A stretch of DNA of 22,102 nucleotides, taken from assembly GCA_964486045.1 (NCBI GenBank), contig CAZALK010000030.1, forward strand, positions 1 to 22,102, written 5' to 3'. Both the position numbers and the translations under genes were made by a program. The notes beneath the pieces are model-generated. The model searched no databases. It was given only the letters and a program-made list of their open reading frames with translations, and was not told where the DNA came from. Positions 6,119 to 21,911 of this stretch are shown in pieces. The first letter of the stretch is position 1. Each line of letters starts with the position of its first letter. Source of the stretch: an uncultured archaeon. Lineage in GTDB: Archaea; Asgardarchaeota; Lokiarchaeia; Sigyniarchaeales; SOKP01.

Positions 6119-6847
6119 CTATAAAAATGGGTAAAAGAATTGCATGAAAAACTCTTTTCCTACTACGTTTCTTTCAAGGAAATCCTCTTTTAATTTTGAA
6201 TAATCATAAGGTATGTTTTTAAAATTGATATTTAGTGAATTATCGCCAATTTCCATTGTACAAAAGGAAGTCAGAGGTTGCATTGTGATGCTAATTGACC
6301 CAGGATTCACAATCGTCTTTCTTTTCCATTTAATATATAGTTGTTCATGAGAATGACCCACCAATACAATGTCAACATCTTTAGGGTAAACAGCTATAAA
6401 TTCTTCTAAAGGTTTTTCCTGGTATATTAGAAGATTATCTTGAATTGTTGTACCGGGAGTATCATAGAAATGTGAATGTATCATCAATATTTTTTTATCA
6501 TTTATAGTTAATGTTTTAAATTGAGGAGTATTAGCTATTTTATCAATTAATTCAGTATTAAGCTGATCTACAATCCAATCGCGATGAGGACCTACCCCTT
6601 CAGGCCACTCCTCTTTTCTTTTACCTAAGACAAACATTTCATTATTTCCAATAATATTTTCAAACCTTTCATCTGCGAATATAGTTTCAGCTACTTCTTT
6701 TGGATGAGGGCCAATAGAGGTAAAATCACCTAAATTTAAAATTTTATCAGCATGAAAACTTTTTTCATTATAACGGAGAAAACTCTCTAATGCATACTTA
6801 TTAGCGTGTATATCTGATATAATAGCAAGTTTAGTATGTTCTACCAT
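6119..6847 (-). CDS. Calcineurin-like metallophosphoesterase (YfcE/MJ0936-related), paralog 1
   Basis: ISDIHAN, LGDF, GNNE, IHSH, GHSH and NPGS motifs. Confidence 0.9.
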   Translation of the reverse strand: MVEHTKLAIISDIHANKYALESFLRYNEKSFHADKILNLGDFTSIGPHPKEVAETIFADERFENIIGNNEMFVLGKRKEEWPEGVGPHRDWIVDQLNTELIDKIANTPQFKTLTINDKKILMIHSHFYDTPGTTIQDNLLIYQEKPLEEFIAVYPKDVDIVLVGHSHEQLYIKWKRKTIVNPGSISITMQPLTSFCTMEIGDNSLNINFKNIPYDYSKLKEDFLERNVVGKEFFMQFFYPFL

Positions 6848-6959: not shown

Positions 6960-7688
6960 TTATAAATATGGGTAAAAATATTTAATAAGAAATTCTCTTG
7001 CCACTACTTTATTCTTTTGATAATCCTCTTTCAATTTTGAGAAGTCATAGGGGATATTTTTAAACTCAAAATTTAGGCTAGAACCATCAATTTCTAAAAA
7101 ACAGAAGGATGTTATTGGTTTCCATGTAATACTGATTGAACCAGGATTTATAATACATTTATCTTTCCATATCAAGTACAATTGTAAGTGGGAATGCCCA
7201 ACTAATACGATATCAGCATCTTTAGGGTACATAGCTAAAAATTCTTCCAGAGTCTTTCCTTGATATACAAAAAGGTTATCTTGAATGGTTGTACCTGGAG
7301 TATCATAAAAATGTGAATGGAGCATCAATACCTTTTTCCCATTAATATCTAAAGTTTTTGATGTGGGTGTATTTTCTATTTTTTCAAGAAGATCTTTTCC
7401 AATATGGTTAGCTATCCATTCATGATGAACCATCTTTTCTCTACGCCACTCATTTTTTCTTTTTCCTAGGACAATCATTTCGTTGTTTCCAATTATATTT
7501 TCAAATCGCTTATCTGTGAAAATTGTTTGCGCCACTTCTTTTGGATTAGGACCAATAGAGGTAAAATCACCTAAATTTAAAATTTTGTCAGCTTGAAAGT
7601 TTTCTTCATTATATTGAAGAAAAGAATCTAATGCATATTTATTCGCATGAATATCCGAGATAATAGCAAGTTTAGTTTTGTTTCCCAT
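6960..7688 (-). CDS. Calcineurin-like metallophosphoesterase (YfcE/MJ0936-related), paralog 2
   Basis: Same motifs and same length (242 aa) as 6119..6847, colinear without gaps. Confidence 0.9.
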   Translation of the reverse strand: MGNKTKLAIISDIHANKYALDSFLQYNEENFQADKILNLGDFTSIGPNPKEVAQTIFTDKRFENIIGNNEMIVLGKRKNEWRREKMVHHEWIANHIGKDLLEKIENTPTSKTLDINGKKVLMLHSHFYDTPGTTIQDNLFVYQGKTLEEFLAMYPKDADIVLVGHSHLQLYLIWKDKCIINPGSISITWKPITSFCFLEIDGSSLNFEFKNIPYDFSKLKEDYQKNKVVAREFLIKYFYPYL

Positions 7689-13964: not shown

Positions 13965-14621
13965 GTGAACTTGGATAAATACTTTAAACTAAAAATAAAA
14001 AAATTTATAAGATTTTTTATTAAAAGAAAGAAAAGAGAAATAAATGAAGAACAGAAAAAACAGCTCCAAATTATTCTGAATAGTGCAAATCATTTGCATG
14101 AATTGATTGATGATGCGATTGATACAAGTAAAATTGAGGCCAGCAAATTAATTGTAAGAAAGGTTCAATATAATCTAGTTGAAGAAATATTCAAATTGAA
14201 AGATACGTTTAGTATTGCTACTGAACAGAAAGGGCTTCAATTTTTCATTGATGCTCCAGAATTTCTCACAATTCGGAAGGATAAAAAGAGGATAAACCAA
14301 ATTTTAGTAAATTTAATTGGGAACGCTATCAAATTTACTGAAGAAGGAAAAATATCTATAATAATTCAAAAAACTCTTGGAAATGTTGAAATTTCAGTTA
14401 AAGATACCGGTTTAGGAATTAAAAAGGAGGATTTAGTAAAATTATTCAAACCCTTTAGCCGGATTATCATACCGGGAATAATTACGGAGGGCACTGGTTT
14501 AGGTCTTTATCTCTCACAGAAGTTAGCTAATCTATTAGGTGGAGAATTGTTCGTTGAAAGTGAATTTGGGAAAGGAAGTACTTTCAAATTAGAAGTAAAA
14601 TTACTTGTTGAGAAGAATTAG
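13965..14621 (+). pseudogene. Histidine kinase C-terminal fragment (second DHp helix + HATPase_c) lacking H-box and sensor
   Basis: N box QILVNLIGNAIKFT, G1 VKDTGLGI, F box LFKPF, G2 GTGLGL and GKGSTF are present. No HE(L/I)RTP/HDxxN motif occurs upstream of EINEEQKKQL. The N-terminal ~25 codons are AT-rich and low in complexity. Confidence 0.65.
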
Positions 14622-16873: not shown

Positions 16874-17236
16874 ACGACTTCAATATTTATAGTCGAAGAC
16901 GATTTCTCACTGCAAAAATTATATACTAAAGTATTAAAGTTATCTGGTTTTGAGGTTATCGGTACTGCAAATAATGGATTAGATGCAGTTACAAAGCTTA
17001 AATCTTTTTCCAAAGAACCTGATGTTATTTTAATGGATCATAGAATGCCGATTAAAAATGGGATTGAAGCGACAAAAGAAATATTAAATTCTAACAATCA
17101 CTCAAAAATAATTTTTGCTAGCGCTGACAATTTGGTTAAGGAAATAGCTTTATCAATTGGAGCTTTTCAATTCATAGAAAAACCTTTTAAAATTCATGAA
17201 TTAGTAGAGAAAATTAAATATGTCTTAAGTTGTTGA
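16874..17236 (+). CDS. Stand-alone CheY-like response regulator (120 aa); start codon reads ACG
   Basis: The frame upstream of ORF-track Met 17033 reads (ACG)TSIFIVEDDFSLQKLYTKVLKLSGFEVIGTANNGLDAV...PDVILMDHRMPIKNG...IIFASA...GAFQFIEKPF. The acidic pocket EDD, phospho-Asp, Ser and KPF are all present. An in-frame TGA lies at 16865. Confidence 0.88.
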   Translation, partial: TTSIFIVEDDFSLQKLYTKVLKLSGFEVIGTANNGLDAVTKLKSFSKEPDVILMDHRMPIKNGIEATKEILNSNNHSKIIFASADNLVKEIALSIGAFQFIEKPFKIHELVEKIKYVLSC

Positions 17237-17298: not shown

Positions 17299-18258
17299 TC
17301 ATGACTTCTTCTTTATGAATTTATTTAATTTGCGAGTGTATGTTTCGATAGTCTCATAATATTGAAGTTCAGATGCTAGATCAATTATAGAATAACACAA
17401 TTCAGCAGCCCGTTCATAATCCTTATTTTTAGAGCTAATATTGACAGATTTTATTAAACTACCAAGTTTTTCTTTTTTTTTATCTATAAGTTCAACACTT
17501 TTTTGCAGAATTGTACTTACATCTGCATTATGTATGTTTATCAAAACTGTTTCAATTTCCGTAGCTAATTCATATATTCTGACAGGGTCTTCTATATCCC
17601 AATTTAAATAGATAGGTAAACTAGCGTACAATTTTAATAAATCATTATTAAATAATACCAAGACTTTGGCAGGGATATCTAAAATAGGGCGCTCGGGGTA
17701 TTTGTAAAAATTAATTCCTATAATAAAATGATCTTCAAGAGTAATAGATAAATAGATTTTGGCATTTGAGACAGATTCTATAAATTCTGTTTGAAAGTAA
17801 TACATTAAATCCTTTGCTTCTTCTGCGATTAGTATTTCCTTATCAACAAGCTCAGAAGTGCTAACTTCTACCTTTGTAGGTCCATCTTCTTTTGGAATAG
17901 ATTCTTTTTCTATTTGAGTAGATTCGTCTTCTAATTGAGTAGGTTCTTCTTCTAATTGAGTATGTGCTTCTTCTAATTGAGGATCAATTTCTTCAATTGA
18001 AAGGGACTCTTCAATTTTTTGAAAGGAAGTCTCTTTCTCACGTGGAGATTTCTTGAATTCCGTTTCTTCTTTTATTTCAGCAATTTGTTGTAAAATATTT
18101 CTTAATTCTTCTTCTAGCACAGTTTTTTGAGTTTTAAATTCCTCCAAAGAAATTGCTGATCTTGCTAATTTCCCCTTAATACCTTGTATGTCTATAACAA
18201 TCTCCTTTATCCTAATTTTTAACTCGTTGATCTTTTCTAATAATTGTTGTTCACTCAT
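17299..18258 (-). CDS. Hypothetical: N-terminal coiled coil, acidic repeat linker, UEV/E2-fold-like domain, C-terminal MIT/TPR-like helices
   Basis: 319-aa ORF 6 bp downstream of the degenerate actin-like gene, with a GGAGA SD inside that gene's end. Central IGINFYKYPERP...LPIYLNWDIEDP..IYEL pattern. The CDS is secure; the domain calls are tentative. Confidence 0.7.
   Translation of the reverse strand: MSEQQLLEKINELKIRIKEIVIDIQGIKGKLARSAISLEEFKTQKTVLEEELRNILQQIAEIKEETEFKKSPREKETSFQKIEESLSIEEIDPQLEEAHTQLEEEPTQLEDESTQIEKESIPKEDGPTKVEVSTSELVDKEILIAEEAKDLMYYFQTEFIESVSNAKIYLSITLEDHFIIGINFYKYPERPILDIPAKVLVLFNNDLLKLYASLPIYLNWDIEDPVRIYELATEIETVLINIHNADVSTILQKSVELIDKKKEKLGSLIKSVNISSKNKDYERAAELCYSIIDLASELQYYETIETYTRKLNKFIKKKS
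17898..17981. repeat. 4 x 21-bp imperfect coding tandem repeat
   Basis: tagattctttttctatttgag / tagattcgtcttctaattgag / taggttcttcttctaattgag / tatgtgcttcttctaattgag, encoding QLEEAHT-QLEEEPT-QLEDEST-QIEKES on the minus strand. Confidence 0.92.
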
Positions 18259-18264
18259 TCTATA

Positions 18265-19305
18265 CTAATCTCCGATTTCTAACTTCTTTTTTGCTAGGGA
18301 TTCAAATCCAATTGCATTAGAGAAGATTGGATCTTTAACTTTAACAATTTTATCAAGCTCAAGAGGGTCAATTAAATTTTGTTCTAAGATTAGCATTTCA
18401 ATTTCGGTCCAAAAAAGCTTCATAGCTTCCCCCGTTATAATGTAATACTCAATATTTGCATCTAATGGTAGCTTATTTAATACAGAGACTAAATTATCAA
18501 CAATTTCTTGTGAAATTTGGCGCATATAATGCTCCTTTAATTTCCCTATATTATAAGATTTTCCAGATAGAATAACATAGCCTTTATTTCCTCTAATATT
18601 TTCTAATATTTCATGAGGATTTATGATTATACCTGTTTTTTGTTGAAGTGCGATTGCGATTTTGTTTGATAAAACAAATAACGATGCGTTAGTTAAGTTA
18701 CGAGAGGCGTTTCTAATTAATTTCCCTTCAAAAATTGTTAATATTTCTGTTAACAAATCGAGTGAAATTACTATTGCGTCTATGGCTGTACCTGTTTCAG
18801 AACTAGAAATAACTTGATAATAAGTTCCATAACTTTCCGGCATTACTAATACTTGTTTGATTGAAATCTTTTTCTCCATAATTTCTTTAGTAGCGTCATT
18901 TATCACTTTAATTTTAAAATCTCCTTTTAGTTTGGAACTCAGATATTTCATTTTCTCGATACTTGTGGAAATTGGAGTCCCAATTCCTAAAATTATATCT
19001 TCTTGTTCCTCTTTTAATAATAAAGGTAAGACAGCTTTAATCAATAAAAATATATCTTCAGTCCTCTTCAAATTTCCTTGGTTCAGAACAAAATTCTTAA
19101 TATCACTTTGAGTTCTCGCTAATTCTCCTACATAGTATTCCTCTTCTTTATCCACAATAATTAAATTGTTTTCCCAACTTTTATCTGTAGTCAATTCGCC
19201 CCAACCAACAGGATTGCTGTTCCCAATAACATTTGGAATTGATAATTTTTTCTTATTAAAAGAGAATTTAATCTCTCCTCCGATATCAATCCCTATTGCT
19301 TTCAT
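18265..19305 (-). CDS. ParM/StbA-like actin-fold protein with degenerate nucleotide-binding motifs
   Basis: GIDIGGEIK, YVGELA, GTP, VMPESYG, IITGEA and SNAIGF. Colinear with 19462..20487, but the phosphate-2 motif is replaced by ISLDLLTE. Confidence 0.85.
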   Translation of the reverse strand: MKAIGIDIGGEIKFSFNKKKLSIPNVIGNSNPVGWGELTTDKSWENNLIIVDKEEEYYVGELARTQSDIKNFVLNQGNLKRTEDIFLLIKAVLPLLLKEEQEDIILGIGTPISTSIEKMKYLSSKLKGDFKIKVINDATKEIMEKKISIKQVLVMPESYGTYYQVISSSETGTAIDAIVISLDLLTEILTIFEGKLIRNASRNLTNASLFVLSNKIAIALQQKTGIIINPHEILENIRGNKGYVILSGKSYNIGKLKEHYMRQISQEIVDNLVSVLNKLPLDANIEYYIITGEAMKLFWTEIEMLILEQNLIDPLELDKIVKVKDPIFSNAIGFESLAKKKLEIGD

Positions 19306-19385
19306 GATCGAATCAATAATAATTATTTTTTTGAGTTATCTTAAAGTAAAAACCTAAAAATGCAAAACGAAATTAATAATTTGGC

Positions 19386-19393
19386 TATATAAA
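19386..19393. promoter_or_regulatory. Candidate TATA box in the divergent 156-bp intergenic region
   Basis: TATATAAA on + and TTTATATA on -, near the middle of the spacer. The AT-rich background weakens the call. Confidence 0.4.
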
Positions 19394-19461
19394 ACTATAA
19401 AATTATTACATTAAAATTAGCAGTATTTGAAAATAAAAAAGAAAATTAAAGTGAATTAAAT

Positions 19462-20487
19462 ATGATTCTACCTGTAGGAATAGATTTAGGAACATCTACA
19501 ATCAAATTATCATGCTTAGGAACAGAATTTCTAATTCCTTCGCTTATCGGGGAGGCTAACCCGGGGTGGTCTGGTGGCACTCTAGATACTTCATTAGAAA
19601 ATAATTTAGTGCTCATTGACGGGCGAGAGGAGTGGTATGTTGGCGAATTAGCTCGAACTCAATCTGAAGTAAAACGTGCTCTAGCAAGTGATGGTCAAAT
19701 GAAATCTGCTGAAGAAACCTTTTTAGCCCTAAAAGCGGCCTTATCATTAATTATTGCTGAGGATGATCAAGACGTTGTTATGGCAACAGGTGTACCAGTT
19801 GCTACTTCTTTAGAAGTTATGAAAAATTTGAGTCGAATGTTAAAAGGAAACCTCGAAATAAATGTCAGGAATGACGCAACGGAAAAAACTCAACGAATAA
19901 ATTGCAATATTACAAAATGTTTAGTTCTCCCAGAGCCTTACGGGACTTATTACTCAACTTTAAAAGAAAGAGGCGAAGATGAAGCTGTTGATACAGTATT
20001 AATTGATATTGGACATGGAAGTACGGATATTTTAACAATGTATGCTGGACGCCCAATGCGTACCGCGAGTGGCTCTTTAAGAGAGGCTACAGATACTCTT
20101 ACGAACCGTATTGCTGCTAAACTTCAGGAAAAGACCAATATGATTGTTAAACCTTTTGATTTAATGACAACAATTCAAAAACAGAAAGAAACCGTAATGT
20201 TAGGAGGACAGACGTACTCCATCAAGGCGATAAAAGATCATTTTTCAGCAGTGATCGCTAAAGTCATGGTAGATGAGGTTATGCGACTAATTGCCACATT
20301 GCCACCTGATGCATTTGTTGAATATTACATAATATGCGGCGGTGGTGCTTATTCTTTCGGAGATGCAATAAAAAAAGCTTTAATAGATGGGAAATTAGTT
20401 AGTAGTCCGGAGGCTGTTGTGATTCCAGATGATCCTGTAATGTCAAACGCAAAAGGATTCGAGTTAATTTCCAAATCTCAAAACTAA
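19462..20487 (+). CDS. ParM/StbA-like actin-fold ATPase with intact motifs
   Basis: Phosphate-1 GIDLGTSTIK, YVGELA, TGVP, connect-1 VLPEPYG (catalytic Glu position), phosphate-2 LIDIGHGSTD, adenosine ICGGGA and connect-2 DPVMSNAKGF. Confidence 0.92.
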   Translation: MILPVGIDLGTSTIKLSCLGTEFLIPSLIGEANPGWSGGTLDTSLENNLVLIDGREEWYVGELARTQSEVKRALASDGQMKSAEETFLALKAALSLIIAEDDQDVVMATGVPVATSLEVMKNLSRMLKGNLEINVRNDATEKTQRINCNITKCLVLPEPYGTYYSTLKERGEDEAVDTVLIDIGHGSTDILTMYAGRPMRTASGSLREATDTLTNRIAAKLQEKTNMIVKPFDLMTTIQKQKETVMLGGQTYSIKAIKDHFSAVIAKVMVDEVMRLIATLPPDAFVEYYIICGGGAYSFGDAIKKALIDGKLVSSPEAVVIPDDPVMSNAKGFELISKSQN

Positions 20488-20630: not shown

Positions 20631-21911
20631 GTGGATGAAAAATCACCTAAAAAAGAAATAGATGAGCTTGAAGATACTGTTAAAGGTATATTAGGTAAAT
20701 ATTCTAATGTAGATTCTTCCAGCGACATTGAAGTAGTTGATCCATTGTCGAGTCTAGATAACTTAGTAAAAGGTGCGTTAACAGAATTAACAGAATTAGA
20801 AGGAGATATATTAGATCTGATAAAACCTTCATCAGAAACAGGACTTAACAATCAAGAAAACAACGTAATTATGGCTGTTAGACGCTTTCAAAATGCGATG
20901 AAAGTAGCTTTATTTGATGGTGCCAGCAAAAGAGATTTAAATCTATTTGAAGAATCTTTTAATTTTTATATCAATGCAATTGAATTAATATCCTCTACAG
21001 GAAACCAAGGAGAAATCGAACAGGTGAAAAGTGAATTTGCTCAGGCTCTGCTTAAGATTGCTTCATTAGGCGATCAAATTAGAGATGAAGCATTTAATCC
21101 GTTTCTTGTAAAAACCTTCCAAACCTTAGCCGAGATTTATGATAGTTTTAAAGACTATAAGATAAGTATTTCATATCATACCAAAGCAGGAAATATATTG
21201 ATAAAGGACCCTAACCTCGTGATTCAAGCAAATTTAGAATATCTTTCTGCTATTATAGGTCATCTTATAATCAATGAAATCGAAAAAGCCCAAAAAATCT
21301 CATTACTCATAAAAATTAAACCTGTTAAGATGGTGGCAGATGAGATATTCTCATGTTTGAATGAAAAAAATCCTACACCTATTGATAAATCTAAAAGTAG
21401 AGTAGAAGCATTGGGGGCTCAGAGAAGAATTACAGTTAGAAATGTAGTATCTTTACTCAAAACTTTTAAATCTAAGCTAAGTGGAGCAACAAAACCTTCC
21501 CCTGTAGAAGAATTAGATGTACCCGTAGCAGCGATTCCGTTATCAAATGAGAAAGTTACAGCCATTAAAGATTCAGTTTCAAAAGGTATTCTTCAATTTC
21601 AATCGGCTCACCCGAATCTAAATGTTCCCGTTGCTCACATTGATACCAGTTCCATTGTGTCTGAATTAAAACAAGCCATTTCTGAGGGAATTAGTAAAGA
21701 AATAAGATCGGTGTCTGATGAAATAGTTGCTAAAATTTTGAAAAACATGCCTAGTGGAGGTTTGACAACCTCAAGACCAAGATCAGCTGGTCCGATTTCA
21801 GATGAAGGCGCTCCAGATATCGAAGTTGTTGAAGGCGGTTTACCTCCTGGAGAAAAACCTAAACGTCCAAAATTAGACGATATGTTGGACTCGGTAATAG
21901 TAAGTGAATAG
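20631..21911 (+). CDS. Hypothetical: acidic N-terminus, TPR/alpha-SNAP-like helical core, oligomerisation-like helix, Pro-rich tail with terminal amphipathic peptide
   Basis: 426-aa ORF with GTG start. FEESFNFYINAIEL and LAEIYDSFKDYKISISYHTKAG...ANLEYLSA helical repeats. The tail is GLPPGEKPKRPKLDDMLDSVIVSE. The CDS is secure; the domain calls are tentative. Confidence 0.7.
   Translation: MDEKSPKKEIDELEDTVKGILGKYSNVDSSSDIEVVDPLSSLDNLVKGALTELTELEGDILDLIKPSSETGLNNQENNVIMAVRRFQNAMKVALFDGASKRDLNLFEESFNFYINAIELISSTGNQGEIEQVKSEFAQALLKIASLGDQIRDEAFNPFLVKTFQTLAEIYDSFKDYKISISYHTKAGNILIKDPNLVIQANLEYLSAIIGHLIINEIEKAQKISLLIKIKPVKMVADEIFSCLNEKNPTPIDKSKSRVEALGAQRRITVRNVVSLLKTFKSKLSGATKPSPVEELDVPVAAIPLSNEKVTAIKDSVSKGILQFQSAHPNLNVPVAHIDTSSIVSELKQAISEGISKEIRSVSDEIVAKILKNMPSGGLTTSRPRSAGPISDEGAPDIEVVEGGLPPGEKPKRPKLDDMLDSVIVSE

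Follow-up and report, generated by a model that had tools for sequence, protein, structure and literature searches.

Duplicated actins have been specialised in eukaryotes as a nucleator, a cap or a nucleotide-free scaffold, as seen in the Arps (Arp2/3, dynactin Arp11 and Arp7/Arp9), and work on the Asgard cytoskeleton centres on Lokiactin and tubulins. The top matches of the locus described here, in both sequence and structure, were ParMRC and the chromosomal cParMs (Dh-cParM1, pCBH ParM and pSK41 ParM; PMC12270681) together with archaeal Ta0583, all of which share the same ALP_N/MreB-like_C fold. As in ParMRC, an actin gene (A) is followed by a downstream partner gene (D) whose product ends in a conserved, helix-like C-terminal tail. 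CorMR of cyanobacteria is a chromosomal ParM-type actin system that was repurposed away from DNA segregation, like the Asgard cassette, and its adaptor binds via a C-terminal helix to which the tail of D is comparable (bioRxiv 10.1101/2025.06.27.661541). MamK and Mad28, like A and its paralogue B, are two co-occurring prokaryotic actins, one of which carries Ser in place of the P2 Asp, and the two cross-interact (PMC10653835). Mad28 is about 16% identical to MamK, retains the P2 glycines and the adenosine GG and polymerises (PMC10653835). In the present study, we analysed a window of 22,102 nucleotides (the whole stretch of DNA) in which A and B are neighbours and each has its own partner gene.

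Results

Locus and host genome

The features of the locus are listed in Table 1. As the sequence-only reading had described, A and B were placed head-to-head across 156 bp, and neither contained an internal stop in the list of window ORFs. The two proteins aligned from end to end with 134 of 340 positions identical (39%, E 1e-86), and all of the shared blocks named in that reading were present in the alignment. In a search of the host, a Lokiarchaeia genome, A and B were the only two genes of this type, and several Pfam Actin matches were detected elsewhere in the genome, on contigs other than that of the window. Because the relatives are labelled Promethearchaeota, Lokiarchaeota or Helarchaeota and the genome contains these Pfam Actin matches, the Asgard origin of the host, suspected earlier, was supported.

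Table 1. Positions of the genes, domains and loops of the cassette in the window.
Feature	Position	Strand	Description
A	19462..20487	+	341 aa; intact ParM/Ta0583-like actin-fold ATPase (ALP_N + MreB-like_C); Asgard-wide family
B	18265..19305	-	346 aa; paralogue of A; nucleotide pocket rebuilt; probable pseudo-ATPase
Spacer between B and A	19306..19461	.	156 bp; AT-rich; divergent; contains the ribosome-binding region of B
C	17299..18258	-	319 aa; partner gene 6 bp downstream of B
D	20631..21911	+	426 aa; partner gene downstream of A
C, E2/UEV-like domain	17524..17841	-	Without cysteine; indirect profile assignment
B, phosphate-1 loop DIGGEIK	19267..19287	-	One residue short; Asp7 and Lys13 retained, Thr-Ser gone
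B, phosphate-2 loop SLDLLTE	18745..18765	-	Ser replaces Asp and Asp replaces Gly; shorter by one residue; no Ser/Thr hydroxyl at its usual position
B, adenosine loop TGEAM	18421..18435	-	Gly to Glu
D, C-terminal tail RPKLDDMLDSVIVSE	21864..21908	+	Near-invariant; 15 residues

Mis-binning of the contig (C30) was considered, as these actins occurred in 0/53 of the other genomes of the genus. It was rejected because the GC content (0.316) fits the genome, because an independent assembly is syntenic and 98.6% identical, and because a genome of the same genus (G022) has the flanking genes together with relics of C and D. The flank of one locus (L071) matched contig C6 of genome G000 only weakly (93.8%). 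The cassette was flanked by metabolic and signalling genes. Among other genes of the window, two tandem paralogues (6119-6847 and 6960-7688) each encode a calcineurin-like metallophosphoesterase of 242 aa. A PAS-PAS kinase is flanked by a histidine-kinase fragment with HisKA and HATPase only (13965-14621, 218 aa) and a partial response regulator (17033-17236, 67 aa), both of which look truncated.

Family and fold of A and B

Both A and B exceeded the cut-off of Pfam ALP_N (PF17989), and A, not B, exceeded that of PF21522. The motifs P1, connect-1, P2 and adenosine were intact in A and invariant across 172 A-type sequences. The AlphaFold models were confident (pLDDT of 90.0 and 89.3 for the two actins; about 90 for B), and the model of B was predicted to have a complete four-subdomain actin fold. 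The best structural matches of both models were Dh-cParM1, Ta0583, pCBH ParM and CorM (TM 0.72-0.77), and the same four were the nearest solved relatives by sequence. With Pfam Actin, A scored 18.8 bits, under the cut-off of 27, and B gave no match; the identity of A and B to actin structures was 12-16%. These results placed A and B outside the Lokiactin/eukaryote-type actins and the Arps, in a ParM-like lineage, as the sequence-only reading had held. In the ESM Atlas, a 61-member cluster of 414-aa proteins matched the model of B at TM 0.93, far closer than other ParM clusters; this cluster is mostly bacterial, with Myxococcota the commonest, and is a lead on the origin of the family.

Nucleotide pocket of B

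We compared the nucleotide-contacting loops of the two paralogues. P1 reads DLGTSTIK in A and DIG-GEIK in B, P2 reads DIGHGSTD in A and SLDL-LTE in B, and the adenosine loop reads CGGGA in A and TGEAM in B. Four changes were present in 73/73 distinct homologues of B: the P2 Asp was replaced by Ser, Thr or Cys; the P2 Gly was replaced by Asp; one residue of the P2 loop was deleted; and the second adenosine Gly was replaced by Glu. All four sites were canonical in 172/172 A-type proteins. Among distant ParM-like proteins, P2 was canonical in 123-125/125, and the adenosine Gly was present in 120/120 aligned sequences. In motif terms, the Asp and both Gly of P2 (D-x-G-x-G/x-T) were absent from every one of the 73 B proteins, and the adenosine G-G was replaced by G-E in all of them. 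A total of 12 fixed differences separated A from B, half of which fell within the P2 and adenosine loops, and Asp183, Thr186 and Glu187 were invariant among B homologues.

The alteration of the three loops reported from the sequence alone was thus found as described, but the catalytic residues were not all gone. B retains Asp7 and Lys13 of P1 and Glu157 of connect-1; among its homologues, the P1 Asp was kept in 63/63, the Lys in 63/64, and connect-1 was Glu in 68 and Gln in 5 of 73. Since these residues are retained, the pocket was rebuilt and not erased.

Previous studies have reported that mutation of the P2 Asp inactivates ParM (D170A), AlfA, Alp7A and AlpC (PMC5539076). In Kar2 G246D, equivalent to BiP G226D, a Gly to Asp exchange impairs ATP binding (PMC2797226), and our own motif alignment suggested that this site corresponds to the Gly that is Asp in P2 of B. 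Judged by these known mutants, B is very likely to be ATPase-dead, and it probably binds ATP poorly or not at all. As the new Asp and Glu are invariant in B, they may well have a function of their own; together with Lys13 they might, for instance, hold the empty cleft shut.

Selection, phylogeny and residue conservation of B

The dN/dS of B was 0.06-0.18 in informative pairs (dS 0.1-0.8), with one pair at 0.27 and two pairs of very similar sequences at about 0.33 as exceptions, and the protein rate of B was about 1.4 times that of A. In two quick trees, which carried SH-aLRT support only, had an uncertain root and were built without named ParM, MreB or crenactin sequences, B formed a single clade (SH-aLRT 99) nested in the Asgard family. 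This clade splits into a Hel-type and a Loki-type branch, and it held when the motif columns were removed. The fixation of the changes in 73/73 homologues, a dN/dS well under 1, the single old clade formed by B and the conservation of the pair show that B is selectively remodelled and kept by selection, not decaying. Selective change had been proposed from the sequence alone, with dN/dS and the conservation of the pair across genomes named as the measures to compare; both bore out the proposal.

The residues invariant in A were unevenly retained by B: 11/14 in subdomain IB but only 4/9 in each of the cleft helix, the IIA loop region and subdomain IIB. E272, R275, P282 and D283, all invariant in A, were not retained. 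With the faces of B assigned from secondary structure and by analogy with actin, not from coordinates, this pattern gave a weak hint that one filament face may be retained.

The sister clade of B (support 93-95) is the second paralogue of another family (L008, L012 and L013, of genomes G041, G043 and G039; P0192). This paralogue retains the phosphate-loop Asp and Gly, has Gly for the connect-1 Glu and Asp for the adenosine Gly, starts with ATG and is unlinked from A. It possibly took an alternative route to inactivity. Further long-branch Asgard paralogues (P0073, P0190 and P0191) carry Ser or Asp in place of the connect-1 Glu; loss of activity in a copy may have occurred repeatedly.

Start codons and spacer

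Within 14 codons of the P1 motif, 29/37 B loci had no ATG. In 14/37, an in-frame stop lies upstream and no ATG, GTG or TTG follows before the P1 motif; first-strand translation in these loci must therefore start at ATT, ATC or ATA. Such starts were usually preceded by a GGTGA-like site. By the same count, a start other than ATG/GTG/TTG was forced in 0/78 A loci, and ATG was the start of cassette A in 26/27 and of C in 34/40. The B of the window has an ATG directly after an ATC, where most relatives have only ATT, ATC or ATA. The loci in these counts are kin, not independent, and no p-value is claimed. As a consequence of the missing ATG starts, many database entries of B are cut to about 297-310 aa.

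Because the weak start was kept across both orders, it suggests that B may be made in small amounts. The sequence-only reading had listed nucleator, capper and co-polymer partner as roles for B; since the starts are mostly non-ATG, a 1:1 co-polymer is disfavoured, and the start pattern would favour a scarce regulator or end factor. No parC-like repeats or iterons were found in six loci, and a spacer search in nine loci found no conserved motif.

Partner genes and cassette architecture

Beyond what had been noted from the sequence, a conserved partner gene accompanies each actin: C goes with B, and D goes with A. The four genes form a conserved cassette, C-B / A-D, in Loki- and Helarchaeales loci. 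Where the contig reached far enough, C lay behind B in the same orientation, once with a 1.5-kb insert, and D stood behind A in nearly every locus of sufficient length. The A-B geometry was more variable than that of B-C, as the two actins were in tandem in L093, L095 and L099, separated by a 2.5-kb insert in L079 and on separate contigs in G056. B was thus linked more tightly to C than to A.

C consists of a conserved N-terminal helical hairpin (aa 1-65), an acidic linker, a Cys-less E2/UEV/RWD-like domain (aa 140-245) and a helical-repeat tail. By HH-align, this domain matched a Loki UBC/RWD-RING protein at 99.7% (domain 2 of that protein) and 85.8% (domain 1), and domain 1 in turn matches Pfam UQ_con at E 6e-11. 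By this indirect chain of profiles, the domain appears to be E2/UEV-like. The catalytic cysteine of E2 is absent, as aa 140-245 of the window C contain no Cys. When C itself was searched against Pfam and PDB profiles, only generic helical matches came up, and an Atlas feature search with C returned nothing. The acidic linker (aa about 90-125; gene at 17299-18258) contains a 21-bp tandem repeat, of which the near-identical L071 has five copies, and its length varies widely among relatives. In three loci (L073:9933-11162, L080 and L143:5902-7140), a second, longer copy of C lies in tandem behind the first. A widespread Loki protein (G000:C1:892641-894311; L149:2142-3812) combines a tandem array of several UBC/RWD-like domains with a RING-like finger at its C-terminus, and it probably accounts for most of the class-wide matches to the C profile (98/161 genomes).

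The body of D is helical and TPR/SNAP-like; the SNAP and TPR leads of the Atlas feature search were all below 0.9. No DNA-binding family (RHH/HTH) was matched by C or D, and none was found in the cassette. By analogy with the tails of ParR and CorR, the tail of D is a candidate actin-cleft-binding helix. In another Asgard family, a protein encoded behind A-type genes has a D-like tail at its C-terminus and is otherwise unrelated; this recurrence speaks for a pairing of the tail with A of the kind known from ParR or CorR. In L075, L117, L119 and L172 (Heimdallarchaeota by record name), an A-type gene is followed by a D-like-tail protein of 220-240 aa, a zinc-ribbon protein and a small GTPase. 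In the sister family, a C-like gene (with extra RWD and zinc-finger parts) and a D-like gene are adjacent (L148 and L151), and the two actins are elsewhere. A three-chain complex prediction of A, C and B, with B as the partner, scored 0.53; the control in which A was replaced also scored 0.53.

Distribution and inheritance

A-type genes were found in 68/400 Asgard genomes and were nearly universal in some families (29/31, 12/12, 6/7 and 5/5). B was found in 10 genomes, each of which had A (10/10), and more than 50 genomes had A-type genes without B. The distribution was patchy, with 14/161 genomes in the class and none of the 53 other genomes of the window's genus, and the B clade spans Loki- and Helarchaeales. 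Genomes of family f18 have about three A-type copies each.

Two genomes of the same genus have lost the actins. G022 keeps the flanking genes and broken relics of C and D (L147:4307-4432 and 7293-7358), and in G111 there remains an ORF of 99 aa that covers only the tail of D (L146:5963-6259). Relics at the syntenic spot indicate loss, not mobility. As these genomes keep flanking genes or relics, the cassette is an old one that is inherited vertically and has been lost many times, and the window contig fits its genome.

Discussion

With the fold, the fixed pocket changes, the purifying selection, the conservation of the cassette and the start-codon asymmetry as observations, we infer a mechanism in which the cassette would be a filament module of four chromosomal genes that descends from a ParM-like actin and is not essential. 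A would form an ATP-driven polymer, and D would hold or feed its filament through the C-terminal tail, as ParR and CorR do, with a TPR/SNAP-like body instead of a DNA-binding domain. B would have been duplicated before the Loki-/Helarchaeales split and would have lost its ATPase via the fixed loop changes, which put Asp and Glu where Gly lined the phosphate and adenosine sites. B, whose weak non-AUG start would keep its amount low, would bind C and work with it at an end of the A filament as a cap, nucleator or anchor, tying this end to the E2/UEV-like domain of C and its protein cargo. We put forward this reading, an ATP-driven A filament held by the tail of D and capped, seeded or anchored by scarce B with C, as tentative, at somewhat less than an even chance. 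Against the end-binding role, Mad28 forms filaments despite carrying the Asp-to-Ser change in P2 that B has, and it was polymerised with ATP-gamma-S (PMC10653835), B retains Asp7, Lys13 and Glu157, and A-B adjacency is looser than that of B-C. In addition, the window's own B has an ATG, and low abundance would follow from the weak start by inference only.

The near-absolute B-C linkage, together with the varying A-B orientation and distance, also suits a rather unlikely alternative in which B, dead and unable to polymerise, would serve as a scaffold together with C, away from the filament of A, with no more than co-regulation between A-D and B-C; B might, for example, join C in a complex for ubiquitin-like sorting or soak up the tail of D. 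The adjacent C-like and D-like genes of the sister family, with its two actins elsewhere, and the many A-type genes that work without B point the same way. However, no genome among the ten with B lacked A, and B retains subdomain IB loop residues common to A, which a free scaffold need not keep.

It is more doubtful still that B polymerises, alone or with A, into a stable filament that would be nucleotide-independent or nucleotide-binding only. Mad28 beside MamK offers the precedent, with a P2 Asp to Ser change, filaments and cross-interaction with MamK (PMC10653835), and the complete four-subdomain fold of B (pLDDT 90) with its retained P1 Asp/Lys and connect-1 Glu is consistent with it. Mad28, however, has the P2 glycines and the adenosine GG, where B has Asp and Glu and both phosphate loops shortened; the non-AUG starts argue against an abundant polymer, and the loss of E272, R275, P282 and D283 likewise counts against it.

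It is very improbable that the cassette is a ParMRC-like DNA partition system serving the chromosome or an integrated element, in which B would have an accessory part. The nearest structures are ParMs and Ta0583, the tail of D is ParR-like and the distribution is patchy, but the cassette has no RHH/HTH gene, C and D have no DNA-binding family match, six loci have no iterons, the flanks are metabolic and signalling genes, and the syntenic relics of C and D in the same genus indicate loss, not mobility. That B is a decaying duplicate is scarcely credible, as its fixed substitutions and the purifying selection on it refute this. In favour of decay, B evolves about 1.4 times faster than A, the two closest pairs have a dN/dS of about 0.33 and most related genomes have lost the cassette; against it, identical replacements occur in 73/73 homologues across two orders, dN/dS is 0.06-0.18 elsewhere, the frames are full-length and the fold is confident.

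Significance and comparison with known systems

The cassette is a second Asgard actin system beside Lokiactin, with the working copy in 68/400 genomes. A literature search, whose coverage left out most subscription journals, found no description of an Asgard ParM-like actin module, which is apparently undescribed. B is a natural, selection-maintained experiment in turning an actin into a dedicated regulator, the step that yielded the eukaryotic Arps. Since A and B are still 39% identical and the sister family has an intermediate form, the path from enzyme to pseudo-enzyme could be reconstituted with four purified proteins. The cassette is dispensable and patchy, and it is not ancestral to eukaryotic actin. 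An independent prokaryotic actin/Arp division of labour is an unlikely outcome on present evidence; in it, a ParM-type duplicate of the Loki/Hel lineages would have become a nucleotide-free, low-dose (non-AUG) end factor coupling a filament to an E2/UEV-like protein. If true, it would mean a second, non-Lokiactin cytoskeleton linked to ubiquitin-type sorting.

Compared with ParMRC, cParM and Ta0583, the Asgard pair is only about 20-27% identical. Unlike ParMRC, the cassette is without an RHH ParR (the neighbours are of 319 and 426 aa) and without parC, and it has a second, pocket-rebuilt actin and TPR/SNAP-like and E2/UEV-like partners; it is therefore not a ParMRC member. In CorMR, the adaptor CorR is homologous to ParR and carries a membrane helix, and MinC is the regulator, both unlike the Asgard cassette; no pseudo-actin paralogue is seen in the passages of the preprint considered here (bioRxiv 10.1101/2025.06.27.661541), and the origins of the two systems are independent. 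In contrast to Mad28, B is a 39% paralogue with acidic residues at the P2 and adenosine sites and has its own partner gene. The eukaryote-type actins of the host are separate genes on other contigs. Finally, the actin/Arp pairing, for which we cite Arp2/3 (PMC12050087), is a working analogy, and the Arps share with B no homology beyond the fold.
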